Counted from the stretch's first letter, positions 5,259 to 62,831 are shown. The stretch: 64,000 nucleotides of DNA from an uncultured Actinomycetota bacterium (GCA_963846525.1 CAWJWE010000001.1:164192-228191); one strand, 5' to 3'. The notes: generated by a model from the letters alone, not told the origin. A program made the numbers and translations.

Positions 5259-5260
5259 GG

Positions 5261-9658: not shown

Positions 9659-9839
9659 TCGTACCTGTCGCGCCCAGTGTGCCACGCAGGCGCTGCGCCG
9701 CGGCACCTGCCCGGCCGCGCATCCGGGCCCGCGGCGCTGCACCCGAAGCACCGTGAGTGCGGCGCGAGGAGTGGCGAAGGATGCAGACCCTGACTCCGCG
9801 CGTCCAGCGAGGGCCGCACCTGCCGAGGAGGACCTGCCC

Positions 9840-11163: not shown

Positions 11164-11174
11164 GCTGCTGGCCC

Positions 11175-11851: not shown

Positions 11852-11888
11852 GGCGCGCGGAGTCTAGGAGGCACCGGCGCGGCCCGGC

Positions 11889-38783: not shown

Positions 38784-39966
38784 TCAGGTCACCTGCAGGT
38801 GGGCCGAGGTAGGCCGCGGCGTTGCGCGCGGTCTCGGTCACCGAGTCGCCGCCGAACTTCTCCAGCACGACGTCGGCCAGCACCAGCGCCACCATCGCCT
38901 CGGCCACGATGCCGGCCGCGGGCACCGCGCACACGTCGCTGCGCTGGCTGATCGCCCGGGCCGGCTCGCCGGTGGCGACATCGACGGTGTCGAGGGCCCG
39001 GGGACGGTCGAGATCGGTTTCATGGCAGCCCGGACGCGCAGCGGCTCGCCGGTGGTCATGCCGCCCTCGACCCCGCCGGCCCGGGCGGTGCGCCGGTGCA
39101 GCCCGCCGTCGGCACCGCGCTCGATCTCGTCGTGGGCCTGCGAGCCACGACGCGCCGCGCTGTCGAAGCCGTCGCCCAGGGCGACGCCCTTGATCGCCTG
39201 GATGCCCATCAGCGCACCGGCCAGCCGGGAGTCCAGCCGCCGGTCCCAGTGGACGTGGCTGCCCAGCCCCGGCGGGAGTCCGTAGGCGAGGACCTCGACG
39301 ACGCCGCCGAGGGTGTCGCCGTCCTTCTGCGCCGCGTCGATCTCGGCCACCATGGCCGCGCTCGCGGCCGGGTCGAGGCAGCGGACCGGGTCGGCGTCCA
39401 GCCGCTCGACGTCGTCCGGCTCGGGCCACGACGCCGTCGGGGGCGGTCGCGCCGCCGATGGCGACGACGTGGGAGACCAGCCGGGCGCCGACGGCCTGGG
39501 CGAGGAACGCCTGGGCCACTGCGCCGAGCGCGACCCGGGCCGCCGTCTCGCGGGCGCTCGCCCGCTCGAGCACCGGACGGGCGTCGTCGAACCCGTACTT
39601 CTGCATGCCGGCGAGGTCCGCGTGGCCCGGTCGCGGTCGGGTCAGCGGGGCGTTGCGGGCGAGGCCGGCCAGGGTCTCGGCCGGCACCGGGTCGGCGCTC
39701 ATGACCTGCTGCCACTTCGGCCACTCGGTGTTGCCGATCCGGATGGCGACCGGGCCACCCTGGGTGAGCCCGTGCCGCACGCCGCCGAGCAGCTCGACGT
39801 CGTCCCGCTCGAAGGTCATCCGCGCGCCGCGGCCGTGGCCGAGCCGACGCCGCGCGAGCGCGTCGGCGAGGTCGTCGGTCGTGACCGCGACCCCGGCGGG
39901 CAGCCCTTCCAGGGTGGCGAGCAGGGCAGGGCCGTGCGACTCCCCCGCGGTCAGCCAGCGCAGCAT
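38784..39966 (-). CDS. aroC: Chorismate synthase (several frameshifts)
   Basis: The gene starts [25 protein letters not shown]...[12 protein letters not shown]. Later pieces read [30 protein letters not shown] and [26 protein letters not shown]. The stop at 38784-38786 is reached after removing one base near 38803. Confidence 0.9.
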
Positions 39967-40048
39967 GCGCCGAATCCTCGCAGACGGGGCCGGACGCACC
40001 GGTGGCCTGCCCGGAGTCCGGGCAGGCCACCAGTCGTGCGACCGAGGA

Positions 40049-40716
40049 TCAGGCGATGGTGAGTCGCTTGTTCCCCAGGACGTTGAACCGCTCCTCGCCG
40101 TACTGGAAGGAGTTGCTGGCGCCACTGATCGAGACGCACCTTGAAGAAGCTGGCGAAGACCTCGCCGGCCCGCAGGTTGGCGTACCGCTTGCCGTCCACC
40201 TTGACGGTGATCGTGCTGTTGTCCGGGGCGACGCTCGACGACGCGGAACGAGTGCGGCGAGGTCGCGGCCGGGCGTGCGCGTCGCCGCCGGTGGTGCCTG
40301 CGCGTCGGTGCCGCCGGCGACGTGCCGCCGGTCGGTCGACGGCGAGGCCGTGACCGGGGTCGCCACGGCGACCGGGCGCTGCCACGACGCCGGCGCCTCG
40401 ACGATGAGCGCCTTGAACGGGTCACGCCCGAACGACTTGGCGTTCAGCCGCTGCTGGGGTGCAGTCGCCGGGGGCCTCGACGGCGTCGCTCGGTGCTGCC
40501 GGCGACCACCGGGGTCGAGCGCGGCTGTCGGCCGCGGGCTCCGCGTCGCCGCCGGCGAAGAACAGGAAGTACGCCAGGATCGCCAGCAGCACGACGCCGG
40601 CGACGCCACCGAGCAGGAGCAGCCGGGACCTGTCCGATGACGGCGGGCTCGTCTCGAGTGCCGGACTCGGGTGGCGGCGCGGTGGCACTGTCGAAGGGAA
40701 CGCTCGACTCACTCAT
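40049..40716 (-). CDS. Pilus-locus membrane protein of unknown family, in the PilP position (several frameshifts)
   Basis: Pieces from three frames give MSESSVPFDSATAPPPES..., a TM segment (LLLLGGVAGVVLLAILAYFLFF), a Pro/Ala-rich linker, FGRDPFKALIV and TITVKVDGKRYANLRAGEVFASFFK...NSFQYGEERFNVLGNKRLTIA. It sits directly downstream of pilO. Confidence 0.45.
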
Positions 40717-40725
40717 GCGTGACTC

Positions 40726-41464
40726 CTACTGGCCGGTGGTCGTCGCCGGAGCGGCGATCGCCGTGGTGGTCGGGGCGGCTGCTGCCGGCTGGCTGAGGAA
40801 CACCCGGCCGGTCAGGGCGATCGTGAGGTTGTCCGGCCGTGGTCCTTCCGCGGCGGCCGTGCGTCCGGCGCCGAGCGTGAAGCCACTGACCAGGAACGAG
40901 CGCCGGAAGTTCTCGACCTTGTTGAGGAACTGCTCGAGCTCGAAGTAGCGTCCCGGTCACGTTCACCGTGAGCGGCACCTGGTACAGCGTCCGCGACGGG
41001 CGGCCGGCGCAGCCGGGGTCGTCGTCGCGGCCGCGTCGGTGCCGGTGCGGCGTCGGTGCCCGCTGCGGCGTCGGTGCCCTCGGCGGGCGGCGCCACCGGA
41101 GCGCGACCAGACCGGGTGCGACCAGTGCCACCGGGACCGCCGGGGACATCGAGTCGATGCTCACCCCGGTCTTGCGGCCGGCGGCCGTGAGGTCACGGAT
41201 CAGGGACGGCAGGGCCGGGTTGTCCGGGATCTGGCGGCGCAGGGTGGCCAGCCGGGCTCGCTGCCGGGGCAGGTCCTCCTGCTGTGCCTTGAGGACCTGG
41301 ATCTGCTGCTCCAGACGGGCGTTCGCGTCCGCCCGGCTGACCGCTTTGCCCTTGAGCTCGGCGGCCTCGCTGCGCTTCGGCGAGATCAGCAGGAACCAGC
41401 TGGCCGCGAAGATCGCGGCCACGAGGACGACGGCAAGCGCCGACCACTTTCGGGTGTCGGTCAT
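40726..41464 (-). CDS. pilO: Type IV pilus assembly protein PilO-like (at least 1 frameshift near 40950)
   Basis: It has an N-terminal TM segment and a coiled coil (AELKGKAVSRADANARLEQQIQVLKAQQEDLPRQRARLATLRRQIPDNPALPSLIRDL). The C-terminus TLYQVPLTVNVTG then RYFELEQFLNKVENFRRSFLVSGFTLG is recovered after a shift. Confidence 0.7.
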
Positions 41465-41465
41465 G

Positions 41466-42156
41466 TCAGCTGCCCGCCTTGTCGGTGTAGCGGCCGGAGA
41501 GCAGGTCCTCGGTGACGACGACCTGGCTGTCGAAGGTCACCGAGTCCTCGGTGCCGATCTGCTCCTGAGCCGACTTGGTGAAGTAGGGGTCGGCCAGACC
41601 CGGTCGCCCGGTCAGCGACTTGAGCCAGGCAGCCACGTCGTTGTGCGTGTAGCCCTTGCCCTGGAACGTCACGGTCCCGATGCCGGCCGTGCCGTAGCCG
41701 GTGGCGGCGCCGGCCACCGGCGCGGCAGCGACGGCGCGCGTCGACCTGCTCGGTCGCGGTCGATCTGGGTCAGCCAGACCTTGCCGGGCGTGTTCAGGCT
41801 GAGGTCGTTGAGGAAGTACGACCAGCGGATCTCCTTGGCCATGGCCTGGCTGAGCTCCGCCTCGCCGGCGTCCACGGCGGCGTAGACCGCCGGGACCTCG
41901 TCGTACTTGGCGGCCTCGGCCTGCAGCGCCGTCTGCCGGGCCTGCTCGGTGTCGAGCTGGTCCTGGGCGTCGGACGACCTGGCCGTTGGCGGCGAGCAGC
42001 AGGACGGCCGACGACGCCGAGCGCCGCGAGGACTCCGGCGCCCAGGCCGGTCTGCACCTTCTTGAAGCGCCGCTGCTCCTCGATCTCGGGCGGCAGCAGG
42101 TTCACCCGCGGAAGGGTGACCAGCCCGGTGCCCCGACCAGTGGTCAAGGTGCTCAT
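41466..42156 (-). CDS. pilN: Type IV pilus assembly protein PilN-like (at least 2 frameshifts)
   Basis: LPRVNLLPPEIEEQRRFKKVQTGLGAGVLAALGVVG shows the PilN N-terminal motif plus a TM segment. The periplasmic part reads IRWSYFLNDLSLNTPGKVWLTQI and GTVTFQGKGYTHNDVAAWLKSL. Its ATG overlaps the pilM stop. Confidence 0.7.
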
Positions 42157-43272
42157 GATGCGACTCCCAGGGCCAGGCCGACCGGCACTGCGGCCAGCGG
42201 CTCGACGAACGCGATCTGCTCGGGCGACAGGCCGGTGCGGCCCACCTGCAGGCTGTGCATGGGGGTGCCGATCTGCACCGGCACCCGGGTCGTCACCTGG
42301 AGGCGCTGGGCGAGACCGCCGAGGCGTGCTCCCCCACCGGTGAGGACGAGACGCGAGATCGGCGCGGAGCCGCTCGACGCGAGGTAGTAGTCCAGCGAGC
42401 CGCGGACCTCGTCGACGAAGGCCGCTCCGACGGCCTCCACGACGCGGACGGCCGCCTGGACGTCCATCCCGTCGCCGGCGGTGCCGAGGGCCGAGCTGCT
42501 GCTTCATCGCCTCGGCCTGCTCCTGGGGGACACCCATCCGCTCGGCGACCGCGTCGGTGACGTCCTGGCCGCCCATGAGCAGGATGCGCACGAAGCGCGG
42601 GACCCCGCCCTGGTGGACCACGATGTTGGTGACCCGGGCACCCACGTCCACGAGCGCCTCGACCTCGGCACCCATGCCGAGGTGGTCGGCGTCGGCAAGC
42701 GAGCGGATGACCGCGAACGAGGTGAGGTCGACCATGACCGGGGAGAGCCCGGCCTTCTGGACCGCCTCGAGGCTGGCGTTGACCATGTCCCGGGAGGCCG
42801 CGACGAGCAGACCGCGCAGGATGCGGCTGCCGCCGTCGCCGGTGAGCTCCTCGAGCGGGTGGAAGTCGAGCACCGCCTGCTCCACGGGCATCGGCACGAA
42901 GTCCTGGACCTGGTAGGCGAGCGACGCCTTCAGCTCGTCGGCCGGCATCCAGGGCAGGTCGACCTGGCGCACGATGACCTTCTGGTTCGCGACGCCGATG
43001 ACGACCTTCTTGCTGCTGAACTTCGTGTGGGCCCAGAGCTGCTTGATGGCGGCGGCGACGGTGTCGGGGTCGACGACCTCGCCGTCCCGGACGGCACCTT
43101 CGGGAAGGGCCACCTGGCCGAACTTCTCGAGTGTGACCTGGTCCTTGCCGAACGAGAGCTCGGCGGCGCGCACGCCCGAGGTCCCGATGTCGAGACCGAT
43201 GGCGGATCGAACTGCCACGACGCTTCCCCTCCCAGAGGCGGCTTCTGCCGCGTGGTGACCCTTGTGGGTCAT
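42153..43272 (-). CDS. pilM: Type IV pilus assembly ATPase-fold protein PilM (one frameshift near 42480)
   Basis: IGLDIGTSGVRAAELSF...VVIGVANQKVIVRQVDLPWMPADELKASLAYQVQDFVPM...ALVDVGARVTNIVVHQGG then LVLTGGGARLGGLAQRL indicates an actin-like fold of PilM type. Confidence 0.85.
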
Positions 43273-43320
43273 GTCAAGAGAGGGGATCGGCCGGTTCCGG
43301 GCCGGGCTTGAGCCTTCGGC

Positions 43321-44120
43321 TCAGCCGAGAACGTTGTCGAGGTAAAGGTCTGCCAAAGCACCGCCCCACAGGATCGAGACGAGGGCGCCGGCCAGCATGT
43401 ACGGGCCGAACGGGATGCTCGACTTGCGCCCGGCCCGCCGGACCGCCATCAACAGCAGGCCCACCACACCGCCGAAGAGGAATCCCAGGAACGCGCCGAC
43501 GACCAGCTCGCCCCAGCCCAGCCAGCCGAGGTAGATCCCCAGCACGCCGGCCAGCTTGACGTCGCCGAAGCCCATCCCCGCGGGGTAGATCGAGCGCGAG
43601 CACGAAGTAGAAGCCGTACAGCGCCGCCATTCCGACGGCCGGCCCGCAGCAGGTCGTGCCGCACGGCCGTCCACCAGGGCCGCCGCGCCGAGCAGCACGC
43701 CGGCGACGAGGTAGGACGGCAGCACGAGGACGTTCGGCAGCCGCTTGAGGTCGATGTCGATCATCGCCAGGGCGACGCCGACCGCTCCCAGGTAGAGGAA
43801 GGCCGGCAGGTCGGGCTGCCAGCCCGATGCGCAGCGCGAGGACCGCGAAGACACCGCCGGTGCGCCAGCTCGACGAGGGGGTACCGGGCGAGATCGGCTC
43901 GCCGCAGTCGCGGCAGCGGCCACGCAGGAGCAGCCAGCTGAGCGACCGGCACGTTGTCCCGGGGCCGGACCGGCTGCTCGCATCCCGGGCAGTGCGACGG
44001 CGGGCGGACGACCGACTCGCCGCGCGGGACCCGCCAGATGACGACGTTGAGGAAGGACCCGACCAGCAGGCCGAGCACGAAGCTCGCTCCCGCGAGCGAC
44101 GCAGCGGCCACAGTCGTCAT
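43321..44120 (-). CDS. pilD: Prepilin peptidase PilD, A24 family (at least 2 frameshifts)
   Basis: The N-terminus reads LLVGSFLNVVIWRVPRGESVVRPPSHCPGCEQPVRPRDNVPV. The peptidase core reads ALAMIDIDLKRLPN...GMGFGDVKLAGVLGIYLGW...IPFGPYMLAGALV. Confidence 0.85.
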
Positions 44121-44190
44121 GTCCTTAATATCGTCACCACGTCTAAGGCCTGAAGGCTAATGGCGGCGGACGTGGGTCGAGCAGGGCCCG

Positions 44191-45504
44191 TCAGCGGTCG
44201 ACCTGGCGGTAGTCCGAGACCCGGAAGTCGTTCAGCAACGGGAAGTTGTCCGCCCAGCAGGCGTCCAGACGGATCTCGGCCGTGCCGTTGAACTTGTCGA
44301 GGTTCTTCGCGAAGACCGTGCCGGTGAACTTCGAGTTGCCGTTTCCGCGCAGCGTCCCGTCCGGCACGAACAGCGCCCCGACGACGTCCGCCCCCGCATT
44401 GATGCGAGCGTCGCCGCCTTCGATGATCACCACGATGGACCTCGTTCCGCAGGTCGCACTCGAGTAGCCCGTGATGGAGTTGAGGTTGACCTCGACGCCC
44501 GGGGCCACCTTGAAGTAGAGCACCGTGTTGGGGTAGTTCGCCGGGTTCGGCGACGTGTAGCTCGCCGTCGTGTAGTAGTTCCCCTGGCTCTTCGCCAACG
44601 CCTTCAACGCGGCGTACTGCTGCGGCTGGAGCCCTCGCGCGGTGAGTCCGAACGAGTCCTGCAGGTCCGTCAGCGTAAACTTCGTCGTCGTGAGGTTGTA
44701 GCAGGATCCAGGGGTCGCCTGGGGACCGCCGTAGGGAGTGGACACCGGGTACTCGGTGTTGCCGAAGCCGTAGCACTTGTTGACGTTGTTCAGGACATCG
44801 TTCGAGGCCGAGCACGCGCCGTTGCTCGAGGTCACGCCACCCGTGGTCTTGATGGAGGCCAAGCCGCCGTACCAGATGTCGTTGCCGGTGACCCCGGTGT
44901 GCTTCACGCCGCTGATGCAGCCGCTGGAGAAGATGGTCTCGTTGGTCACGTCCGCAGTACCGACAGCGACGACGCTGTCGGCGTAGACCCCGACCGGGTA
45001 GGTGAACGGCCGCGCTACGACTGTGGCTTCCACCGCTCGTACTCCGGCGGTGGAGACGCTGGTCGTGCCCTTCGACCTGATCCGGTAGACCGACTCGCGC
45101 GTGGTGGGCGGGGCCGCCTTGGCGACCCGCGAGATCCACACTGCGTACTGCTGCCCCCCCGCGCTCACCGTCTGGGCGTTCGCCGGCCCGTTCCACGCAC
45201 CGGTGCAGGCCGTGGCGCTCGTCCACGTGGTCCCGTTGAACGTGAGACCGGACTCGGGGCAGTTGATGCCACTGGCACCGCTGCGCAGGAACTCGATCCC
45301 GGCCGCGACGCCGGCGTCCGCGACGTCCAGCGCGATCGCGCCCTGCCGGTCGCGGTCCGCGTTCTGGCTGTTGGCGACCGCCATGACGGTGGCAGTGATG
45401 CCCAGACCGGACATCGTCGCCACCACCAGCATGACCACGACGATGGCGTTGCCGGCGTCCGCCGAAGCGGCGCGGACACGACGGATCAGGTGAGCGCTCA
45501 TCAT
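44191..45504 (-). CDS. PilX_N-like pilus assembly protein, 438 aa, Cys-rich
   Basis: Intact ORF. The N-terminus GNAIVVVMLVVATMSGLGITATVMAVANSQNADRDRQGAIALDVADAGVAAGIEFL resembles the PilX N-terminal domain, with no G/F cleavage motif. Ten Cys residues are spread through the rest. Its start overlaps the upstream stop (ATGA). Confidence 0.6.
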   Translation of the reverse strand: MMSAHLIRRVRAASADAGNAIVVVMLVVATMSGLGITATVMAVANSQNADRDRQGAIALDVADAGVAAGIEFLRSGASGINCPESGLTFNGTTWTSATACTGAWNGPANAQTVSAGGQQYAVWISRVAKAAPPTTRESVYRIRSKGTTSVSTAGVRAVEATVVARPFTYPVGVYADSVVAVGTADVTNETIFSSGCISGVKHTGVTGNDIWYGGLASIKTTGGVTSSNGACSASNDVLNNVNKCYGFGNTEYPVSTPYGGPQATPGSCYNLTTTKFTLTDLQDSFGLTARGLQPQQYAALKALAKSQGNYYTTASYTSPNPANYPNTVLYFKVAPGVEVNLNSITGYSSATCGTRSIVVIIEGGDARINAGADVVGALFVPDGTLRGNGNSKFTGTVFAKNLDKFNGTAEIRLDACWADNFPLLNDFRVSDYRQVDR

Positions 45505-46175
45505 GCCTTGTTCCTCATGTTGACTTGGGTCTCGTAGACCTGACGGCGGGCGCCGGTCAGGACCGTGAGCGAGATGGTCGCTCCGTTGATGTTGCGCAGC
45601 TCGATGGTGTCGAGCACACCATTCTGGTTGCCCACGCCGGCGGATAGCGGTGCGCAGTCGAGCTCCTGCCAGGTCACGACACCGTCCGGCGTCGGACTGG
45701 CGGCGCAGGCACCGTCGTACTGCCAGAGGTTGGACCGGGGCTGGATTGTGAGGCTCTGGACGTCGGAGGAGAGGATGGGCAGCGCGGCCGGGTTGTCGCA
45801 GGGGAACCCGCCTCCGACATCCGCCGTGAGGAGCAGCCTGCGGCCTGCTGTGTCCCAGCAGTAGGTCAGACGCTCGGGGTCGGCCGCGCTGGAGTCGATG
45901 CTGCCGTTGCCGTTGAAGTCGACCGTGAACGTCATCCCGGTGATCTGACCGCCCGTGATCTTGACCTCTTCGATCTCCGAGGCCTGACGCAGCTCGCGAG
46001 TGATCCGGTTCAGCGCGAGACGCGCCTGCTCGTTGAGGTCGTTGGTCTGGCGGGTGGTCTCGACGCTGCTGCTCGAGGTGGCGACGACCGTGGCGATCGC
46101 CGCGAGGATCACGAAGAACATCATCGACGCCACCAGAAGCTCGACCATGGTGAAACCTGAGTCGTCGCGCTTCAT
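45501..46175 (-). CDS. Minor pilin with prepilin-type N-terminal cleavage/methylation domain (PilW-like)
   Basis: Intact ORF. MKRDDSG/FTMVELLVASMMFFVILAAIATVV shows G-1, F+1 and E+5. It has ATGA overlaps on both sides. Confidence 0.7.
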   Translation of the reverse strand: MKRDDSGFTMVELLVASMMFFVILAAIATVVATSSSSVETTRQTNDLNEQARLALNRITRELRQASEIEEVKITGGQITGMTFTVDFNGNGSIDSSAADPERLTYCWDTAGRRLLLTADVGGGFPCDNPAALPILSSDVQSLTIQPRSNLWQYDGACAASPTPDGVVTWQELDCAPLSAGVGNQNGVLDTIELRNINGATISLTVLTGARRQVYETQVNMRNKA

Positions 46176-47932
46176 CGGTTGTCCTCTGCGTAGCAGGACA
46201 TCGGCGCGACCTGGACGGAGATGGCCGAGCCGGGGTCGCCCACCCGAGTAGGAACGGTGTTGAGCGTGATGATGCCGTCAGTAGTTCCGCGAGCGACGTT
46301 TCCTCCCGCACCGGTCAGGATGTCCAGGGTCGTGAGCGCCGTCCAGCTGGGGATGTACTCGCTCAGCCAATGGTCGGTCCCCGCCACGTTCGCGACCTTG
46401 ATGGTCGCCGGGTCGGGCAGTGCGCTGCCACCGTTCTGGACGGTGCCGACCAGCTGGTAGCTGCCGCTCTTCCAGGCGTAGACGTCGGCCTTGAAGGTTG
46501 CCGTCGCCGAGGGCGTCGTCCCGTCGGTGCTGCACTTCAGGACTGCTCCGTAGACCTGGATCTGGACGACCCCGCGCCCTGACGGTGTGAAGGTCGTCGG
46601 CATGACGTCGATGACCGATCCCGCCGCATGCGTCGACGGACACATTGCGCCAGCGGACCCGCAGGAGCCGGCCCAGGCGTTGACGGCGTGGGTCAGGCCG
46701 GACGTCTGCGTCGTCCACAGGCCGCCGAAGGCGGTGCCGTCCGCACTGCCTCCGGACGACGTGACCCCCAGCTGCTCCTTGGGCCGCAGCGTGACGAGAG
46801 GGACGTTGTTCTGAAGCATCAGGTCGATGCGGTCCGGCAGGTTCGCGAACCGGAACGCTGGTCGCCCTGCTCCCCCTGCGCCGTTCACGGAGGCGAAGAT
46901 GGGGTTGCCCGTCCCATCTGCGGCGTAGCCGACGAGCGGCAGTGCGCGGTCGACCTTGAGGGATCCCCCGGTCACGACGGTCTTGCCGAAGCAGACCGTG
47001 TTGCAACCAGTGCCCTGAAGGTCGCCACCGCTGGTGTCCGTCACGGTGGGGACGGTCTGGGACGGGGGCGCGTTGCCCGAGCTTCGGGCTCCTTGGACAT
47101 TGATGCCCGGGGTCATCGCCACCGAGGCTCCGAGCGCGTCGACCGAGGAGGTGATGCCGGCAGCCGCCGAACCGTCTGCGTTGACGCTGGCAAGGTCCGC
47201 CGTGACCTGGACGCCGCCGGGCAGGGTGCTGGCCACCTTGAGCAGCTCGGCTCGCGCCTGGCCATTCACCAGTGGCTTGGTCGGCTGCGCCTGGTCGATC
47301 CGGGTGTACGTCTTGTGCGACCGGACCTTGCCGTACCGCGTCCACACGACCTGGACGGTGACCGCCATGACGGTGCTCGGGACCTCGTCCAGACCCGCCG
47401 TGTTCTGGTAGGCGTAGCCGGCCTGGGGGGCCACCGCAGCACCGGCGCCGGTGAGGAACTGGGCGACGACGAGAATCCGATAGGTCGAGCCCTCGCCCGG
47501 GAGAGTGCGGCTGCGAACGGTTCGGTAGAAGTCGCCGGCCGGGTCCCCGGGGGCGCGACCGGCGACCGCCGCCGCCGACACGTAGCCCGTGCTGACGTTG
47601 GCGATCGTCGTCCCGGTCGCCACCGGCGTCAGGGACGGAAAGTAGTTGTCGACGAGGTCGACCTTCGCAGCCGGCGCCGCCGCACCGGTGGCGTCGCGCT
47701 GGTTGGAGGCATCCACGTGGAACGGGAGCTGGCGCATGCCCTCCACCTGGTCTTGCGCCAGGTTCCGGGCCTGGGTCGCGGTCTTGGCGAAGACCGACGC
47801 CTTGGTCATGCTCAGGAACATCGGGATCAGCGCCATCACGGCGATGCTGAAGATCATCATCGCGATGAGCAGCTCGACGAGGGTGAAGCCCTCGTCTCCC
47901 TCACGACGACCAGCGAGCTTGTTCATCAGCAT
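46172..47932 (-). CDS. Giant minor pilin (586 aa) with PilV-like N-terminus
   Basis: Intact ORF. MLMNKLAGRREGDEG/FTLVELLIAMMIFSIAVMALIPMF...ARNLAQDQVEGMRQLPF is followed by about 500 aa of Gly/Thr/Ser/Ala-rich sequence that matches no family I recognise. Confidence 0.7.
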   Translation of the reverse strand: MLMNKLAGRREGDEGFTLVELLIAMMIFSIAVMALIPMFLSMTKASVFAKTATQARNLAQDQVEGMRQLPFHVDASNQRDATGAAAPAAKVDLVDNYFPSLTPVATGTTIANVSTGYVSAAAVAGRAPGDPAGDFYRTVRSRTLPGEGSTYRILVVAQFLTGAGAAVAPQAGYAYQNTAGLDEVPSTVMAVTVQVVWTRYGKVRSHKTYTRIDQAQPTKPLVNGQARAELLKVASTLPGGVQVTADLASVNADGSAAAGITSSVDALGASVAMTPGINVQGARSSGNAPPSQTVPTVTDTSGGDLQGTGCNTVCFGKTVVTGGSLKVDRALPLVGYAADGTGNPIFASVNGAGGAGRPAFRFANLPDRIDLMLQNNVPLVTLRPKEQLGVTSSGGSADGTAFGGLWTTQTSGLTHAVNAWAGSCGSAGAMCPSTHAAGSVIDVMPTTFTPSGRGVVQIQVYGAVLKCSTDGTTPSATATFKADVYAWKSGSYQLVGTVQNGGSALPDPATIKVANVAGTDHWLSEYIPSWTALTTLDILTGAGGNVARGTTDGIITLNTVPTRVGDPGSAISVQVAPMSCYAEDNR

Positions 47933-48426
47933 CAGCGCAGTCCGTTCACGGAGACGCGAGAGGTGAGCCCCTCGACCTTGACGGTGTAGACCTTGGATGA
48001 CGACAGCCGGGTCACCTTGACGGATCCCGCCGTGGCCGTGCCACGTGGCGTGAACTGGGCGTTCGCCGTGGTGCTGCCGTCGGCCTGGAGGAAGCTCGGT
48101 GAGGCCAGGAGGACGCCGGGATTCGCGGTCACGCCCTTCGAGACGAGCAGCCCTGTCGAGCAGGTCGAGCGGTAGACCTTCCAGGCGCGTGCCGCGACGT
48201 CGAAGGTCACGCAGTAGTTGATGCCTTCGGCCTGTGCCCGGGACTGCGCGTTGCGCAGCACTTCCTCGATCTGCACCGCAGTACCGCGCTCGTCCTGAGC
48301 GTTCCGGTACCTGCTGAACCCGCCGACGGACACCGCGACGAGGATCGAGAAGATCACCATGGTGACCGACAGCTCGATCAGCGTGAAGCCTCGGTCGCCG
48401 CCACGTCGGTGCAGTCTCTCCTTCAT
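47932..48426 (-). CDS. Minor pilin, FimT/GspH-like
   Basis: MKERLHRRGGDRG/FTLIELSVTMVIFSILVAVSVGGFSRYRNAQDERGTAVQIEEVLRNAQSRA. The ATG at 48426 overlaps the upstream pilin stop. Confidence 0.65.
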   Translation of the reverse strand: MKERLHRRGGDRGFTLIELSVTMVIFSILVAVSVGGFSRYRNAQDERGTAVQIEEVLRNAQSRAQAEGINYCVTFDVAARAWKVYRSTCSTGLLVSKGVTANPGVLLASPSFLQADGSTTANAQFTPRGTATAGSVKVTRLSSSKVYTVKVEGLTSRVSVNGLR

Positions 48427-48872
48427 CAGCAGGTCCCGGTGTCGAGCCCGTTGGCAGCGGTGAACTTGTAGTCCTTCTGGCGACCCTTCGGGTCGGTGAG
48501 AGAGACGCACCACAGGGTCTCGCTGTTCAGGTTCGACGACGCGCCACTGGCCGGGCGTGCGGTGCCGTTCGTGAGATTGATGGTGGACGCATAGCCGTTC
48601 GCATCGGCGAGCACCACGCTGCCCGGCACGCTGACGAAGTCCAGGGTGAGCGTCGAGTTGCCGTCGACGAAGTAGGTGGCGACCTCTTTGGCGAGGTGCG
48701 ACACGTCTGCCTTGGTGGACGCGTCGTGGGCGTTTGCCCGCTGGCTGAGGAAGGCCGGGATCGCGATGGATGTCAGGATGCCGATGATGATCATGACCAC
48801 GAGGAGCTCGACTAGAGTGAAGCCCTGCTCGGAGGAGTTCCGCGCGGGCGACCTTGTCGACCTGGAGCTCAC
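48426..48872 (-). CDS. pilA: Type IV pilin, second paralog
   Basis: Intact 148-aa ORF. MSSRSTRSPARNSSEQG/FTLVELLVVMIIIGILTSIAIPAFLSQ is followed by a C-terminal Cys pair (LWCVSL...DTGTC). Confidence 0.85.
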   Translation of the reverse strand: MSSRSTRSPARNSSEQGFTLVELLVVMIIIGILTSIAIPAFLSQRANAHDASTKADVSHLAKEVATYFVDGNSTLTLDFVSVPGSVVLADANGYASTINLTNGTARPASGASSNLNSETLWCVSLTDPKGRQKDYKFTAANGLDTGTC

Positions 48873-49033
48873 GTCAGACCCCCTTCTTCGCTCGTGATGG
48901 CGGCGTTGAGCCGCGGCTTCACCACTCTGATCGACTCCACGTCATGAATTCTTGAGTCCTGGCGTTCGGCCGGTTGAGGCAATGTGCAGCGCTTGGCCGA
49001 CGCACGAGCTTCCGTCAAGCGGGCAGATGAGTG

Positions 49034-49069
49034 GGGGTGTGCGGAAGTCGCGTGATCTCCGCACACCCC
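49034..49069 (-). terminator. Second strong hairpin between the two pilin genes
   Basis: GGGGTGTGCGGA - 12-nt loop - TCCGCACACCCC forms a perfect 12-bp stem. No clear U-tract follows. Confidence 0.45.
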
Positions 49070-49082
49070 GGTCGGACAATGA

Positions 49083-49113
49083 CTCTGGGCGGCCCCATCG
49101 GGGCCGCCCAGAG
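49083..49113 (-). terminator. Hairpin terminator/attenuator directly after the major pilin gene
   Basis: CTCTGGGCGGCCCC-ATC-GGGGCCGCCCAGAG forms a perfect 14-bp GC-rich stem. It starts 18 nt downstream of the pilA stop (49131-49133). Confidence 0.6.
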
Positions 49114-49130
49114 CTACTCGGAGATCAGGA

Positions 49131-49571
49131 TCACGGGCAGGCGCCGGTCTCCAAACCGCCGGCGGCGGAGTACTTGTAGGTCTTCTGCTTGCCGTCGGCG
49201 TTGGTGAAGCCGATGCACCAGAGGGTGTCGCTGTTCAGGTTGGTGGCGGTCACCTGGTCGGTGCCCTTGCTGACCTTGATGTCGGCGAAAGGAACGCCGG
49301 CGTCGGAGAGGACGACGTTGTCGCCAGGAGGAGCCTGGGCGACGGTGACGTTCGGCACGGCGGCCGGCTCGACGAAGTAGGTCGCGAGCTCCTTGCCGAC
49401 GGTGGACACGTCGGCCTTGGTGGAGGAGTCCCGGGCCTTCTCACGCTGGGAGAGGAACACCGGGATGGCGATGGCGGCGAGGATGCCGATGATGATCATG
49501 ACGACGAGGAGCTCGATCAGGGTGAAGCCCTGGTCCTTCTCCTCCGCCGCCTTGCGGATGCGAGCGAGCAT
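49131..49571 (-). CDS. pilA: Type IV major pilin candidate
   Basis: Intact 146-aa ORF. MLARIRKAAEEKDQG/FTLIELLVVMIIIGILAAIAIPVFLSQ is followed by a C-terminal Cys pair (LWCIGF...ETGACP). It has a strong SD (AAGGACGGAG), its own leader and its own terminator. Confidence 0.9.
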   Translation of the reverse strand: MLARIRKAAEEKDQGFTLIELLVVMIIIGILAAIAIPVFLSQREKARDSSTKADVSTVGKELATYFVEPAAVPNVTVAQAPPGDNVVLSDAGVPFADIKVSKGTDQVTATNLNSDTLWCIGFTNADGKQKTYKYSAAGGLETGACP

Positions 49572-49643
49572 GTGATGCTCCGTCCTTTCAGGACCGATCC
49601 CGATGAGCCGCGCCGCCGGTCCCTCGCGGCACCCTTGTGGGTG

Positions 49644-49736
49644 CCGGCCGAGGCAGCTGGGCTGACCGCGATCTCTGTCACGCGGTTCCCTGGCTTTGCG
49701 ACCCCGTCTCGCGACGGGTGTGCCGTTTCTGGCCGG
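49644..49736 (-). promoter_or_regulatory. Candidate riboswitch-like aptamer (GEMM-I-like motif) in the pilA leader
   Basis: On the minus strand a closing helix CCGGCC/GGCCGG encloses two hairpins. The first is CCCGUC-GCGA-GACGGG and the second is ACCGCG..CGCGGU (extended by GGG/CCC). They are linked by GUCGCAAAGCC. This is only a partial match to the c-di-GMP-I core as I recall it. Confidence 0.35.
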
Positions 49737-49840
49737 TGTGGCTCGATGACATAGAGGTTTTCGGTGCCGTGACGGACCGCGCTTGAGCCGTTGCCGAGGA
49801 CAATTTCCGCGACCACCCGATGGGGCTAGGCCGAACGGCG

Positions 49841-49873
49841 GACGGGCCGGACGCCGAACGGGTCCGGCCCGTC
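49841..49873 (-). terminator. Hairpin terminator after pilC
   Basis: GACGGGCCGGAC - 9-nt loop - GTCCGGCCCGTC forms a perfect 12-bp stem about 20 nt downstream of the inferred pilC stop. Confidence 0.55.
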
Positions 49874-49892
49874 CGACGTGGCCAGCGGTCGG

Positions 49893-51125
49893 CTACTCTG
49901 ATCAGGTCGAAGACCTTGAAGATCGGCATGTACAGCGCGATGATCATCGACCCGATGATGCGCGCCGAGGAAGGCGATCATCAGCGGCTCGATCAGCGCG
50001 GTGAGCGCCTCGGTGGTCGCCTCGACCTCCTGGTCGTAGAACTCGGCGATCTTGTGCCAGCATCGTGTCCAGGGCGCCGGTGTCCTCGCCGACGGCCATC
50101 ATCTGCACCACCATCGGCGGGAAGACCGGGTGCTTCGCCAGCGGCTCGGCGAGCGACTCGCCGCTGCGGACGCTCTCCTGGACGTCGCGTGATGGCGCGC
50201 TCGAGGACGACGTTGCCGGTGGTGTCCGCGACGATGTCGAGCGCCTGCAGGATCGGGACGCCGGACTTCATCATGGTGCCGAGGTTGCGGGCTGAACCGG
50301 CTGAGCGCGATCTTCTGGAACAGCTGGCCGAAGACCGGCAGCTTGAGCTTGAGCGGGTCGAGCGACGTTGCGCACCTGGTCGCGTGTGCTTGACCTTGCG
50401 GCCAGGTGACCATGAAGCGCGATGAAGCCCACCACAGCCGATCGGCGCCAGCGACCTTCATCGCCTCGCTGAGGAACACCAGGACCCGGGTCGGCGCCGG
50501 CAGCGTCGCCGCCGAGGTCGTCGAACATGCCGGCGAAGACCGGGACGATGAAGAGCAGCATGCCGATGACGGCGAGGATGGCGATGACGAACACGACGAC
50601 CGGGTAGGTCATCGCCGACTTGACCTTGCCGCGCAGCTTGACCTCGGCCTCGTAGTTCGTCCGCGATCTGCAGCAGCACCGCGTCGAGGAAGCCGCCGAC
50701 CTCGCCGGCCCGGATCATGTTGACCATCAGCGGCGGGAAGACGTCCGGGTGCTTGGCCATGCGCCTGCGAGAGCGCGCTGCCGGTCTCGACGTCGTTGCG
50801 CGACCTCGCCGAGGACCCGGGCGAGCTCCTTGTTCTCGGTCTGCTCGGCCAGGATCGTCAGCGCGCGCAGCAGCGACAGGCCGGAGTTGATCATCGTCGG
50901 CGAACTGCCGCGACATGACCGCGAGGTCCTTGAGCTTGACCTTCTTGCCGAAGCCCGGGATGTTGATCTCCTTGCTTCATCCCGGCCTTGTGCTCGCTGA
51001 TGCTGACAGCGGCGCGTAGCCCATCTGTCTTGAGCTTGCTGCGCCACCGCGGCCTGGGAGTCCGCCTCCAGCGTGCCGGTGACGATCTTCCCGGTCTGGT
51101 CCCGGACCGAGTACTCGTAGGTCAT
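49893..51125 (-). CDS. pilC: Type IV pilus platform protein PilC (many frameshifts; 3' end approximate)
   Basis: The gene starts MTYEYSVRDQTGKIVTGTLEADSQAAVAQ. Two T2SSF repeats appear across frames (MINSGLSLLRALTILAEQTENKELARVLGEV and MMKSGVPILQALDIVADTTGNVVLERAI). The final helix reads MIIALYMPIFKVFDLI. Confidence 0.85.
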
Positions 51126-51149
51126 GCGTCGCTGCCATCGGATTGCCTC

Positions 51150-52737
51150 TCAGCCTCGGCCGGCGAGCCGGTTGAAGTCCTCGACGTGGTGGCACTTCTC
51201 GAGGCCGACCTCGTAGGTGATCTTGCCCTTCATCACCAGGTCGGCGAGGTGCTGGTCCATGGTGTGCATGCCGTGCTTCGCGCCGGCCTGCATGGCCGAG
51301 TAGATCTGGTGGGTCTTGCCCTCGCGGATCAGGTTGCGGATGGCCGGCGTGGCGACCAGCACCTCGGTCGCGACGGCCCGGCCCGTGCCCGTCGCGCGGT
51401 CTTGGCCAGGGTCTGGCAGACGACGCCCTGCAGCGAGCCGGCCAGCTGGACGCGGACCTGCTGCTGCTGGTTGGGCGGGAAGACGTCGATGATGCGGTCG
51501 ATCGTCTGCGCGGCGTCCTGGGTGTGCAGGGTGGCGAAGACGAGGTGGCCGGTCTCGGCGGCGGTCAGCGCCACCGAGATGGTCTCCAGGTCGCGCATCT
51601 CGCCGACCAGGATGATGTCGGGGTCCTGGCGCAGCACGTGCTTGAGCGCGTTCTGGAAGGACTAGGTGTCCTCCCCCACCTCGCGCTGGTTGACGATGCA
51701 CTTCTGGTGCCGGTGCAGGAACTCGATCGGGTCCTCGACGGTCATGATGTGCTCGCTGCGCGGTCCGGTTGGCCAGGTCGATCAGCGACGCGAGCGTCGT
51801 CGACTTGCCGGAGCCGGTCGGGCCGGTGACGAGGACGAAGCCGCGCGGCAGCGACGCGAAGTTCGGCCACCGACGGCGGCACGCCGAGGTCCTCGAGCTT
51901 GCTTGATCTCGAACGGGATGATGCGGAAGGCCGCGCCGAGCGCGTCGCGCTGGCGGTAGATGTTGACGCGGAACCGGGCCCGGCCCGGGACGCTGTAGGC
52001 GAAGTCGAGCTCGAGGTTCTCCTCGAACTTCTCCCGCTGCTTCTGGGTGAGGGCGGCGTAGAGCACCCGCTGGATGACCGGCGGGGTGAGGATCGGCTGG
52101 TCCTCCAGCTGCTTCAGCTCGCCGTTGAGCGGATCGCGGGCCGGGCGCCCGACGTCAGGTGCAGGTCGGAGGCGCCGCGTGTCGAGCACGTGCATCAGCA
52201 GGTCGTTGAGGCTGATGTCGTTCTCGTCGCCCTCGGCCTCGGTCGAGCCGCGCTGGTAGGCCGACTCCTCGGCCTCCGACTCGGCGACCAGCACCGAGGC
52301 TGCCGTCGCGAGACGCTCACGACGTCGCCCGCGAACGCGGCCGGGGCCGGCGGCGAGCGGTGCTCGTCGACGGGGCGACCTGCTCGCGGCAGCGTAGGCG
52401 GTGGGCGCCTGCGGGCAGCGCGGCTGGCGCCGCGAGCTCGGGCGCCGGCGTCGTACGACACCGGCTGCTCGAGCGCGGCGGCCGGCGGCTGGTACGGCAG
52501 GGCTCCAGCGAGGCCACCGGCCGGCGGGAGCGGGCTCGGCGACCGGGGCCGCTCGGCAGGACCGGGGCGATCGGCGCGGACAGCTCGTCGGCCTCCGCGG
52601 CACCGGGCTCGGCCGACGTAGGAGTAGGTCCACCCGGCGCCCGGGCTCGTCGGCCTCGGCCTCGGGCGCGTCGGCACGGGCACGGCCGCGAAGCCTCCCG
52701 GCTCGTTCGGCACCGGCTGGTATCCGGACGTCTCCAC
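51150..52737 (-). CDS. pilT: Twitching-motility retraction ATPase PilT with Pro/Ala-rich N-terminal region (frameshifts plus an in-frame TAG; start uncertain)
   Basis: The core fragments read [12 protein letters not shown]...[72 protein letters not shown], then [29 protein letters not shown]. An in-frame TAG (51662-51664) follows, then [47 protein letters not shown] and [14 protein letters not shown]. Confidence 0.85.
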
Positions 52738-52850
52738 CTGCTGACCCCTCTCGCTACGGCGGCCCGCGGACCGCGGCACACCTGTCTCGCGAGAGGATCG
52801 GCCGATCGGGCCCTGGCCTTGAGCCGTCGGTGGCCGACCTTGCCAGGTCT

Positions 52851-54534
52851 TTAGACGACGACGCGGAGGATCTCCTCGAGCGAGGTGACGCCCGCGAGCA
52901 CCTTGTCCAGCCCGTCGTCGCGCAGCGTCCTCATGCCCTCGTTCGCGTGGCCACCTGCTCGATCACCGTCGGCGGAGGCGCTGCTCGACGGCGAGCCGCT
53001 CGATCTCCTCGGTGACCGCCATGACCTCGTGCAGCGCCAGCCGGCCCTTGTAGCCGGTCTTGGCGCACGCCGAGCAGCCGACCGGCCGGAACAGCTCGGG
53101 CAGCGGCTCGCCGTCGTGCCACGGGAACCGGGACGCCACCAGGAGCTCCGCGGGTCGGGCGTGTACGCCTCCTTGCACTTCGCGCACAGCCGGCGGGCGA
53201 GCCGCTGGGCGAGCACCGCGTCCAGCGCCGACCCGACGAGGAACGGCTCGATGCCCATCTCGGTCAGCCGGGTGATCGGCCGACGGCGCGTCGTTGGTGT
53301 GCAGGGTCGACAGCACGAGGTGGCCGGTGAGGGCGGCCTCGACGGCGATCTGCGCCGGTCTCGTGGTCGCGGATCTCACCGATCAGCACGATGTCGGGGT
53401 CGGACCGCAGGATCGAGCGCAGCGCCGAGGCGAACGTCAGGCCGGCCTTGGTGTTGGTCTGCACCTGGTTGATGCCGGGCAGCCGGTACTCGACCGGGTC
53501 CTCGACCGTGATGACGTTGACCTCGGGCCTGCTGACGATGTTCAGCGTGGCGTACAGCGTCGTCGACTTGCCGGACCCGGTCGGCCCGGTGACCAGGATC
53601 ATCCCGTACGGCTTGGTGAAGCTCTCGCGAGTAGCGCTCGTAGTTGCTGCTCGGAGAAGCCGAGGTCGGTCGAGGTCCAGCTGCGCCGTGGAGTTGTCCA
53701 GGATTCGCATGACGACCTTCTCGCCCCACACCGTCGGCAGGGTCGCGACGCGCAGGTCGATCTTGCTTGCCCGTGGGCGTTGACCGACAGGCGGCCGTCC
53801 TGCGGGATGCGGCGCTCGGCGATGTTGATGTCGGCCATGATCTTCAGCCGGCTGATGACGCCGGACTGGATCGCCTTCGGCGAGCGCATGACCTCGTGCA
53901 GCACGCCGTCGATGCGGAAGCGCACCCGCAGGTCGTGCTCGGTCGGCTCGAGGTGGATGTCCGACGCGCGGTCCTGGATCGCCTGCGTGATCAGCAGGTT
54001 GACGTACTTGACGATCGGCGCGTCCTCGACGATCTCCTTGACCTTGGAGAGGTCGTCCTCCTCCTCCTGCGCGTCGAGGACGCTGGTGAGGTCGTCGATG
54101 TCGGAGTCGGCGCGGTAGTAGCGGTCGATCGCGGCGGCGACGTCGGCCCGGGTGGCGACGACCGGCTTGACGTCCATGCCGGTGAGCGACGCGGATGTCG
54201 TCGATCGCGAAGACGTTGGCCGGGTCGGCCATCGCGACCAGCAGCTTGCCGTCCTCGAAGCCGATCGGCATGCGCCGAGTGGCGGCGGCACGACCGGCGC
54301 CGGGGACCCGGCCGACGGCGGAGCCGTCGACCGGCGAAGTCGGAGAGGTCGACGAACCGCAGGCCGATCTGGGTGGCGAGCGCGGCGACCAGCTGGGACT
54401 CGGTGAGCACGCCCTGCTCGATCAGCACGCGCCCGAGGGCCCGGCCGACCCGCTGCTGCTCGTCGTAGGCGGCCTGCGAGCTGGGTCGGGCTGACCAGCC
54501 CGCCCTCCAGCAGGATGTCGCCGAGCTGCTTCAC
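52851..54534 (-). CDS. pilB: Type IV pilus assembly (extension) ATPase PilB (many frameshifts)
   Basis: The N-terminus reads [19 protein letters not shown]. ATPase-core fragments include [12 protein letters not shown], the Walker A site [48 protein letters not shown] and [15 protein letters not shown] Cys cluster reads CAKCKE...[12 protein letters not shown], and the C-terminus reads [26 protein letters not shown]. Confidence 0.9.
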
Positions 54535-54797: not shown

Positions 54798-55376
54798 TCA
54801 GGCCCGGACGGCCTCGGTCTCGACCTCGTCGAGGACCGCGTAGAGCAGGGCCAGCAGGACGTTCTTGACCGACTCCTTGTCGGTGGCGTCGCACGGCGAG
54901 GATGGCCACGTCGGACGGGATGTCCAGCTGCTGCCGGACCCCCTCGATCAGCGCGTGGTCCTCGGCGCCGGCCCGGTTGAGCGCGACGACGTACGGCACC
55001 CGCGCCATCGTCCGGAACGCGCTCGAGGATGCCGCGCAGCCTCCTGCACGGAGTCCTCACGGGACGCGTCGACGAGCAGCAGGTAGCCGATCATGCCCTC
55101 GCCGAGGATCTCCCACATGAAGTCGAAGCGGTCCTGGCCCGGGGTGCCGAACAGGTAGAGCACCAGGTCGCGGTCGATCGTGATGCGACCGAAGTCCATC
55201 GCCACGGTCGTCTCGGCCTTGCGCTTGCGGGTCGAGTCGGTGATCCCGCGCTCGGTCGAGAGCACGGTGATCTCGCTGATGGTGCGGATCAGCGTCGTCT
55301 TGCCGGCGGCGAACGGGCCGGTGACGACCACCTTCACTGCCTGTCCGCCGCGGCGGCGAGCCCGTCCGGTTGCCAC
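54798..55376 (-). CDS. Small Ras-like GTPase of the MglA/CvnD ('ATP/GTP-binding protein') type (about 2 frameshifts)
   Basis: [21 protein letters not shown] (P-loop)...TVAMDFGRI...[19 protein letters not shown]...GYLLLVD is followed by [35 protein letters not shown] and [21 protein letters not shown]. The GTG overlaps the upstream stop. Confidence 0.75.
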
Positions 55377-56647
55377 TAGAGACCCCTCACGCCGGCGATG
55401 AGCCGCAGCATCAGGCTGCGGTTGACGTTGGGGTCCCGCTCGATGACGGACAGCGCATCCGGGTCCGGAGCGGTCGCGGTGGCACCGACGACGTCGCCGA
55501 GCCCGGACATCGAGGCCGACGGCCCCGCCTGCACGTGCACGGCGCGGACGGCAGGTGCCGACGGCGTCTCCTCGAAGTCGGCCTGCCGCTTGGGCAGGAA
55601 CGGCTCGGGCCGCGGCGGCACGACGTCCTGCGGGACGTGCGCCCCGCCGAGCATCACCGGGCCGTCGGCGCCGGCCGTGGCGGTGGCCAGCTCACGCTCG
55701 CCGCCGTCGGCGTCCGGGGACGACAGGCCCTGCTGACCGGCGTCGCCCTCGTCACCGGCGGACGAGCTGGCGTGGGCCTCGGCCATCGCCTTCGCGGCCT
55801 TCCCGGGCTGCTTCGCCGGCGGCGCGGGCGGAGCTTCCTCGGTCGGTGTCTCCTGGACGGGGACGAACGGCGCGTCCTCGAGCGGGGCGAGCAGGCGCTG
55901 GCGGCGCACGACGACGGTGACGTGGTCGTCGGCCTCGCCCGACTCCGGGCGGACCTCGAGCAGGCCGCGCTGCACGAGAGCGGCGAGGGTCGACACGACG
56001 GCGTACTGGCCGCTGCCGGTGAGGTCGACCAGCTCGGTGACGCTGCGCCGTCCGTCGACCAGGGCGAGCAGCGACCACTCCTCGCGGGTGACCTCCGGGT
56101 CGGTCGGCAGCACGACCGGCATGGACGAGGACGGCCCGGGGCGACGGCACGACCTGCGACACGCGTCTCCCAGGTCGAGCTGGCGGGACTCGGCGTCGGC
56201 GAGGACCGCCTCGACCGACAGCGTCACGCCGACGTCGTCCGGGTTGGCCTCGTCCATGACGAAGGCGAAGTCGCCGTCGCGCCAGCGGAGCAGGTCGAAC
56301 ACGGCGTCGACGGACTGGTCGGTGGCGGCCCGGCGGAGCAGGTCGGCGTCGACGGCGCCGTGCTCGAGCAGGGCCCGGACGACGCCGAGGCCCTCGCCCT
56401 GGCCGGCGGCGTCGACGGCGGCGGTCAGGGCCTCGTCGGTCGAGCGTGCCGCTGCCGACCAGGCGCCGGGCCAGCGGCTGCCGCGAGCTGTCCGCCGACG
56501 CGCCGGTGATCTGGCCGCTGGTGAAGAAGACGACGCCGTCGCGAGCCGTCGCTGGGCCAGGTGCAGCCCGCCGGTCTTCTTGGTGAAGCTCAGCAGCTGG
56601 AAGATGTCCGGCAGGCTGAACGCGTCGAGCGAGCCCTCGAGCTTCAT
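55376..56647 (-). CDS. DUF4388 (PATAN) domain protein with disordered Pro/Ala-rich C-terminal half (at least 2 frameshifts)
   Basis: The DUF4388 signature reads [30 protein letters not shown]...[19 protein letters not shown]. This is followed by [46 protein letters not shown], a low-complexity region and a conserved-looking tail ([19 protein letters not shown]). Confidence 0.65.
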
Positions 56648-56649
56648 CG

Positions 56650-57183: not shown

Positions 57184-57232
57184 CGTCCACCTCGTGCCGC
57201 TGCTGCCGGGCGACGTTCGACCCGTTCCGTCC

Positions 57233-59827: not shown

Positions 59828-62831
<3,004 letters not shown>

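Follow-up and report, generated by a model that had tools for sequence, protein, structure and literature searches.

The 64,000-nucleotide stretch of DNA analysed here (the window; CAWJWE010000001.1:164192-228191 of assembly GCA_963846525.1, from an uncultured Actinomycetota bacterium) carries a type IV pilus locus without a secretin on its minus strand, at positions 40052-54534. We consider it very likely that this locus is a native, vertically inherited type IVa pilus (T4aP) cluster of the single-membrane kind, most likely functional, and that the frame breaks running through it are assembly errors. The locus was identified by Pfam and NCBIfam matches, by motifs and by alignment to G013, a genome of the same family (single contig, 97% complete) with an intact and collinear locus that served as our reference. 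It encodes PilB, PilT, PilC, two major-type pilins, three prepilin-type minor pilins, a PilX_N-like protein, PilD, PilM, PilN, PilO and one extra membrane protein. The original prediction, made from the sequence alone, had listed these genes on one strand, and all of them were recovered on the minus strand, essentially where it had placed them. Judged by its encoded parts (class III pilin signals, PilM-PilN-PilO, a PilT-family ATPase, PilC and PilD), the predicted system is a T4aP. The PilM-PilN-PilO alignment subcomplex is specific to this class (PMC6916266).

The GC content of the window is about 73% and spurious open reading frames (ORFs) are abundant. A filter based on GC at third codon positions (GC3) gave output too fragmented for gene calling. 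Stop-to-stop fragments of the minus strand between 40 and 54.6 kb were scanned with Pfam, which matched PilB, PilT, PilC, PilD, PilM and the prepilins. Curated-model scores for PilT, PilM, PilN and PilO were taken on the intact G013 orthologs, not on the window copies. A profile search of this kind had been proposed together with the original prediction; run on window fragments and G013 orthologs, it matched the core components.

The motor and platform genes come first in the locus. pilB (52851-54534) codes for an extension ATPase of about 554 aa and was matched by T2SSE and MshEN models on its fragments. Read through its 15 frame breaks, it shows Walker A, Walker B, the His box, the tetra-Cys motif and [11 protein letters not shown], with not a single stop codon, and in the frameshift-aware alignment it is 92% identical to the intact G013 PilB. 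At its N-terminus, residues 4-14 spell an MshEN motif for cyclic di-GMP (c-di-GMP), [11 protein letters not shown]; the G013 PilB N-terminus matches the c-di-GMP motif model NF053729 with 57.1 bits (cutoff 38). pilT (51150-52737; 12 frame breaks and an in-frame TAG; T2SSE match) encodes a retraction ATPase with a disordered N-terminal extension of about 170 aa. The G013 ortholog reaches 488 bits on TIGR01420 over residues 168-507, against a cutoff of 319. In the window the AIRNLIRE motif is encoded, [10 protein letters not shown] stands in the window's own frame, and the read-through shows Walker A, Walker B and the His box. The platform gene pilC (49900-51138; about 406 aa) has 16 frame breaks, and T2SSF was matched on three fragments that come from both gene halves. 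Its frame-corrected product is 83% identical to G013 PilC and free of stops.

The two pilin genes and the entire minor-pilin block, 44191-49571, are clean ORFs without frame breaks. pilA1 (49131-49571; 146 aa) and its paralog pilA2 (48426-48872; about 140 aa, 71% identical to G013 PilA2) both match N_methyl/TIGR02532 and end with a C-terminal Cys pair; their processing sites read KDQG/FTLIELLVV and SEQG/FTLVELLVV. They are followed by a GspH/FimT-like minor pilin of about 164 aa (47932-48426; N_methyl 32 bits; PF12019 GspH 23.5 bits, cutoff 21; GDRG/FTLIELSV), a large minor pilin of 586 aa with a prepilin N-terminus (46172-47932; N_methyl; GDEG/FTLVELLIA) and a third of 224 aa (45501-46175; N_methyl 21.5 bits, cutoff 21.2; DDSG/FTMVELLVA). 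The motif G/FT[LM][VI]EL, which had been read from the sequence before, is thus present in five prepilins, two pilins and three minor pilins, with PF07963 and TIGR02532 above cutoff. The block closes with a Cys-rich protein of 438 aa (44191-45507), a continuous ORF of high GC3 that has no prepilin cleavage motif and resembles PilX_N weakly (PF14341 16.7 bits, cutoff 25.5). The prepilin peptidase/N-methyltransferase gene pilD (43324-44108) was detected by A24_N_bact and Peptidase_A24 on fragments. Across its 7 frame breaks both catalytic Asp motifs (DIDLK and GFGDVK) can be read, no stop occurs, and the product is 73% identical to its G013 counterpart.

The alignment complex is encoded by three further genes. 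pilM (42156-43218), whose product has an actin-like ATPase fold, contains one frame break at about 42492, on account of which PilM_2 matched on two fragments (135.6 and 38.7 bits). It is 87% identical to G013 PilM, which scores 214 bits on TIGR01175 (cutoff 133). pilN (41469-42156) and pilO (40735-41464) have about 4 frame breaks each and are 60 and 61% identical to the G013 proteins, which match PF05137 with 35 bits (cutoff 22.8) and PF04350 with 45.7 bits (cutoff 22), respectively. No match to the secretin family PF00263 was obtained in six-frame searches of this genome and of G013, G007 and G023, while 6 diderm controls were positive. Absence of a secretin is expected, because the system is monoderm. 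The earlier description of a type IVa-like pilus that lacks a secretin and has a PilT-family ATPase therefore holds, both for the retraction motifs and for the genome-wide lack of PF00263. PilY1 (PF05567) likewise gave no match in a six-frame search, but the controls were silent as well, and its absence is consequently unproven.

Many reading frames of the locus are broken. A frameshift-aware dynamic programme, with which 22 proteins of G013 were aligned to the window, yielded 98 frame breaks, which were judged from the assembled sequence and by comparison with relatives. Breaks in the pil genes account for 64 (PilB 15, PilT 12, PilC 16, PilD 7, PilM 1, PilN 4, PilO 4, extra gene 5), and 34 of the 98 lie outside them (MltG 11, AroE 10, PATAN 5, GTPase 3, AroC 2, AroB 2, roadblock 1). 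AroK, AroQ, PepP, Efp, PyrB, PilA1 and PilA2 have none. The original prediction had noted frameshifts in pilB, pilC and pilT. These are present, but breaks occur in pilD, pilM, pilN, pilO and the extra gene as well, and flanking mltG, aroE, aroC and aroB are hit too; the housekeeping genes outside the locus are broken at the same density as the pil genes.

About 64 frame breaks spread over pilB, pilT, pilC, pilD, pilM, pilN, pilO and the extra gene, together with a nonsense codon within the pilT core, are what one would see in a decaying pseudogene cluster whose pilus is no longer made. We judge such decay very improbable. Apart from the breaks of the same kind in mltG, aroE, aroC and aroB, 85 of the 98 breaks are insertions, contrary to the deletion bias of natural bacterial indels. 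PilB, PilC and PilD carry no in-frame stops despite 7-16 breaks each and keep their catalytic motifs, and the pilins and minor pilins are fully intact. Furthermore, amino-acid divergence does not exceed that of an intact genus. As a yardstick we used G007, which has an intact locus and belongs to another genus of the same family. The identities to G013 of the frame-corrected window proteins and of the G007 proteins, respectively, were 92 and 91% for PilB, 83 and 76% for PilT, 83 and 77% for PilC and 73 and 73% for PilD, and the flanking proteins behaved alike (MltG 78 and 74%, AroE 75 and 66%, Efp 91 and 92%). Since the identity to G013 matches that of an intact genus, there is no sign of relaxed selection.

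The breaks are also not peculiar to this region. The assembly comprises 3.3 Mb in 15 contigs, with a completeness of only 58.8%. Using a codon-phase hidden Markov model with a higher switch rate, calibrated on the window, we found at least 5 same-strand frame switches in 22.8% of the 2-kb bins of the assembly, on nearly all contigs, compared with 2.9% in the intact loci of relatives; at least 8 switches occurred in 11.5% of the bins compared with 0%. A coarse version of the model was unable to resolve breaks about 75 nt apart. T2SSE genes on contig C7 and at C1:601k are likewise split by frame breaks. None of the 98 breaks lies at a homopolymer of 5 or more bases, and an origin in homopolymer errors was rejected, the mean maximal run length around breaks being 2.43 against a background of 2.51. 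Given the hits in housekeeping flanks, the insertion bias, the undiminished identity, the motifs kept without stops and the genome-wide spread, we conclude from the assembled sequence that the breaks are almost certainly errors of a patchily unpolished assembly rather than mutations. The original prediction would have given way to a decayed locus if the frameshifts were real, and this is very unlikely to be the case, with breaks assembly-wide and protein conservation intact.

Several observations weigh against a native, functional cluster and should be set beside this evidence. An in-frame TAG at 51662-51664 (minus strand) replaces the conserved Trp of the relatives' GEDTWSFQNAL in the PilT core; a genuine stop codon here would leave this strain without active retraction. 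It is probably a single miscalled base in an error-rich stretch, which is likelier than a real nonsense mutation, and a systematic base-calling error is plausible, as the presumed original context, CCTGG, is a methylation-type motif. Where the sequence is of low complexity, as in PilN, PilO, the extra protein and the PilT extension, the alignment may have called too many breaks. The best match of G013 PilB, TIGR02538, stays below its cutoff (656.2 against 675.65 bits), and the best NCBIfam match of G013 PilC is a full-length PilC model at 420 bits, below its lineage-specific equivalog cutoff of 700. Finally, GC falls to 0.66-0.68 over 44-52 kb, the region of the pilin, minor-pilin and pilC genes, compared with 0.72-0.76 in the flanks, a difference of 5-8 points.

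For annotation, this means that heavy frameshifting of a pilus locus in a metagenome-assembled genome with long contigs is no reason to class it as a cluster of pseudogenes. Artefact and decay can be told apart by the density of breaks in essential genes on either side, the direction of the indels and the frame-corrected identity measured against intact genera. The window contains further dense patches of frame switches at 4000-14000 and 60000-64000 (5-11 per 2 kb), which probably hit alaS and other genes.

The locus lies among shikimate genes. aroC, aroK, aroB and aroQ (36780-39969, minus strand) follow it, and frameshift-aware alignment to the G013 orthologs placed 2 breaks each in aroC and aroB. 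On the other side, the same alignment located genes for a small GTPase, a PATAN protein, a roadblock protein, AroE and MltG at 54801-59291, also on the minus strand, with 3, 5, 1, 10 and 11 breaks, respectively. The interval between aroE and aroC thus holds the locus as predicted, but aroE (about 57320-58164) does not adjoin pilB, since a module of roadblock/LC7, PATAN (DUF4388) and small GTPase genes (54801-57183) stands between them. The G013 order is the same: mltG, aroE, roadblock, PATAN, GTPase, pilB, pilT, pilC, pilA1, pilA2, minor pilins, pilD, pilM, pilN, pilO, the extra gene, aroC, aroK, aroB, aroQ, pepP, efp. G007 also has an intact collinear locus.

The original prediction had described the locus as inserted, and the gap between aroE and aroC as a docking site for pilus genes. 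A recent horizontal insertion at this position would account for the drop in GC from about 0.73-0.76 in the flanks to 0.66-0.68 across 44-52 kb, yet we find it scarcely credible. The same order and flanks recur in the family (G013, G007), in other orders of Actinomycetes (Cellulomonas, Sanguibacter, Demequina, Angustibacter) and in other classes (L107-L110, L114-L116). Identities of the pil proteins track those of the flanking housekeeping genes, and we noticed no integrase, tRNA or repeats bordering the locus. As far as gene order can tell, the arrangement of pil genes between aroE and aroC is inherited synteny common to several Actinomycetota classes and not an insertion.

To this vertically inherited arrangement two wider comparisons can be added. 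A scan of species-representative genomes with G013 PilD yielded 80 loci from named Actinomycetota. Where pilD-pilM were present and at least 6 kb of downstream sequence was available, aroC-aroK-aroB came directly after pilO in 32 of 50 loci. Loci linked to aro genes include those of Cellulomonas, Actinotalea, Sanguibacter, Angustibacter, Flavimobilis and Demequina, and in several of them aroE directly precedes pilB. We also compared the neighbourhoods of 20 PilD sites sampled evenly across the phylum. PilD occupied the aroE-aroC interval at 12 of these, 8 of which have pil clusters and belong to families outside the window's class; one (L115) shows the full order mltG-aroE-pilBTC-pilA-pilD-pilMNO-aroCKBQ-pepP, and another (L109) has PATAN and GTPase genes with its pil cluster. 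That the interval hosts pilus genes in many actinobacteria, as had been supposed, is therefore borne out by both samples.

At the other four sites the peptidase stands alone in the aroE-aroC interval, namely at L113 (aroE-pilD-aroC) and at L101, L102 and L104, the latter three in genomes of about 6-7.5 Mb and about 68% GC. The earlier supposition that actinobacteria keep at least a prepilin peptidase there is correct for these genomes. At L101, about 6 kb of other genes lie between the lone peptidase and aroC. The lone-peptidase sites share the PilD family and the chromosomal position with our locus and differ in that pilB, pilT, pilC, pilM, pilN and pilO are absent. They look like reduced states, or leftovers, of the same pil operon. 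Beyond the phylum, E. coli K-12 has hofM-N-O-P-Q-aroK-aroB, in which alignment-complex genes are likewise linked to shikimate genes. The simplest reading of these gene orders is an ancestral aroE-pil-aroC operon that was repeatedly reduced. With this locus, a further lineage joins the evidence that retractile type IVa pili are a long-standing trait of Actinomycetota, passed on vertically and tied to the shikimate operon.

Gene identities, motifs, synteny, the spread of frame breaks over the assembly and the conservation of the riboswitch described below are direct results of the analysis; piliation, retraction, responsiveness to c-di-GMP and the biological role we infer from the encoded parts. 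PilD would cleave and methylate the prepilins (PilA1, PilA2 and the three minor pilins). PilB would sit on the platform formed by PilC and on the alignment complex of PilM, PilN and PilO and would polymerise the filament, whose priming probably falls to the minor pilins together with the PilX_N-like protein. PilT would depolymerise it, so that the pilus could be retracted and would serve attachment to surfaces and movement of the twitching type. The adjacent roadblock/PATAN/small-GTPase module may add spatial control and is a candidate polarity or motor regulator. The module is kept in G013 and G007, and in L109, which belongs to another class, pilB is likewise preceded by a PATAN and a GTPase gene.

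Regulation by c-di-GMP is suggested at two points. A c-di-GMP-I (GEMM-I) riboswitch aptamer lies in the pilA1 leader at 49649-49734 (minus strand), 78 nt upstream of the pilA1 start, and matches the whole length of model RF01051 (51.5 bits against a gathering score of 35, E = 7.7e-9). On RF03167, the GGC variant model, the same segment scored 52 bits, below the gathering score of 59. The RF01051 aptamer is also found 5' of pilA1 in G013, G007, G023 and G006; at the gathering score it was not found in L024, L035 (Angustibacter) and L038. A match to the small RNA family sX6 at 44752-44860 (21.6 bits against 40) was dismissed as chance. Because the riboswitch precedes pilA1 and PilB carries the MshEN motif, the sequence suggests that c-di-GMP would act both on pilin supply and on motor activity. 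A c-di-GMP riboswitch controls pilA1 in C. difficile, too. As the most likely function of the locus we see a retractile pilus with which the cell attaches to surfaces and moves by twitching, with c-di-GMP as the controlling signal.

The cluster could be intact and its pilus used mainly for DNA uptake, as a competence pilus, rather than for adhesion or twitching. DNA uptake is driven by retractile T4aP in many bacteria (PMC6370729, PMC6916266), and ComEC is encoded in this genome and in relatives, so that DNA capture is possible. ComEC is near-universal, however (it was matched in 10 of 14 control genomes), and no comEA, dprA or other competence gene adjoins the locus. Control by c-di-GMP and the neighbouring module with its MglA-like GTPase and PATAN protein better suit surface behaviour and polarity. 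We therefore regard DNA uptake as an unlikely main role and prefer surface attachment and movement.

The gene directly 3' of pilO (40052-40716, minus strand; up to 5 frame breaks) encodes the extra protein of the locus. It is bitopic, with a transmembrane helix, the motif FGRDPFKAL, a Thr/Gly-rich linker and a C-terminal beta domain of seven strands. The gene is conserved in several families, and the protein has 152 metagenomic homologs, all annotated as hypothetical and none carrying a Pfam domain. No Pfam or NCBIfam family was matched; a Pfam scan of 44 family members gave low-complexity noise (such as New_glue), and none of the 44 matched Pfam PilP (PF04351). A six-frame genome search with PF04351 found nothing either, but it is uninformative, as its controls were silent too. 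In a profile search against sequences of the Protein Data Bank, only transmembrane and Pro-rich stretches of VirB10 and DotF were matched, and no PilP.

The full-length AlphaFold2 model was of low confidence (predicted local distance difference test, pLDDT, 61.9) and gave a weak fold search. Modelled by itself, the C-terminal domain reached a pLDDT of 92.9 and a predicted template modelling (TM) score of 0.79. Foldseek matched this domain best to the secretin-coupling family with a homology region (HR), namely to the HR of GspC with TM scores of 0.67/0.71 and a root-mean-square deviation of 2.0 A, to the HR of PulC with 0.61/0.62, to PilP with 0.61/0.53 and to GspB with a probability of 1.0, all at E-values of 0.09 or higher; unrelated structures stayed below a TM score of 0.45. 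The architecture of membrane anchor, linker and beta domain, and the position directly 3' of pilO, fit PilP/GspC HR proteins. Since all E-values are 0.09 or higher, we speak of a fold-level resemblance of the modelled domain to the PilP/GspC HR, with positional equivalence, and not of proven homology. Tentatively, and as a possibility we do not favour, the protein may be a true, highly diverged PilP/GspC-type coupler that survived without a secretin, the locus being a synteny relic of a pilMNOPQ-aro operon of a double-membrane ancestor from which only pilQ was lost; the pilMNO(P)-aro gene order is common to the locus and Proteobacteria. If this were true, the HR domain would have taken on a new task, such as stabilising PilN-PilO or contacting the thick cell wall.

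The original prediction had implied that such pili are rare in this phylum. Reviews describe the actinobacterial pili studied so far as being of the Tad/Flp type and mention predicted type IVa systems in this phylum (PMC6916266, citing PMC6668835). Genomic surveys had in fact already noted actinobacterial type IVa pili (PMC3244431, PMC6668835), and Gram-positive pil operons with pilT were described in 2011 (PMC3244431), so that the implied rarity does not stand. A 2019 study that characterised type IV pili of Actinoplanes zoospores (J Bacteriol 201:e00746-18) is cited in PMC11522434 and PMC10733313. Zoospore pili of Actinoplanes missouriensis share the phylum and the PilA-type type IV pilus with our system. 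Micromonosporaceae-type loci (L050, L092) have pilD divergent from pilB, pilT and pilC and no nearby aro genes, unlike the locus described here. Kimura and co-workers (2019) are said to have assigned the Actinoplanes zoospore pili a role in adhesion, and these are reportedly the only studied type IV pili of actinobacteria.

Among the closest known systems are the monoderm T4aP of Firmicutes (Streptococcus sanguinis, Clostridium perfringens and C. difficile; PMC6916266). Like them, our locus has no secretin, a PilT-family motor and one cluster with PilB, PilT, PilC, PilD, PilM, PilN, PilO, more than one major-type pilin and several minor pilins. It differs from them in phylum, in the disordered PilT extension of about 170 aa, in the roadblock/PATAN/GTPase module, in its shikimate-operon setting and in a riboswitch of class I, not class II. 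PilP-type parts are missing in monoderms (PMC6916266), whereas here a post-PilO protein with a PilP/GspC-HR-like fold is encoded. The hof genes of E. coli K-12 resemble our locus in that alignment-complex genes are directly followed by shikimate genes and a small anchored HR-type beta-domain protein follows the PilO homolog. In contrast to hof, our locus lacks a secretin, has aroC before aroK, holds all pil genes in one cluster and encodes a PilP-like protein that is anchored by a transmembrane helix and unrecognisable by sequence. The locus is thus an ordinary new example of a known machine that has a few unusual parts, chiefly the PilP-like protein, PilT with its extension and the conserved riboswitch. 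Together with the MshEN motif of PilB, these parts are testable handles on how a single-membrane pilus is built and regulated, and cultured relatives with the same locus exist in Cellulomonas, Sanguibacter, Demequina and Angustibacter.

The PilT extension begins with a conserved head, ETSG[FY][KQ]P..EPGGF..GWTYS, which a Pro/Ala-rich stretch follows; the tail [12 protein letters not shown] then leads up to the ATPase core. In Cellulomonas-type loci the tail differs and reads R[VI]G[ML]. PilT proteins of other classes (L080, L108-L110) have an MshEN/GspE-N-like N-terminal domain in place of the extension, and a further member of the extension family is found at L011, 14300-15763. The genome itself contains additional T2SSE-family ATPase genes at C2:15469-16002, C7:97975-98572, C1:600966-601687 and C5:196247-196996. 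Two of these share 56-62% identity with the PilT core and are possible PilT/PilU paralogs.

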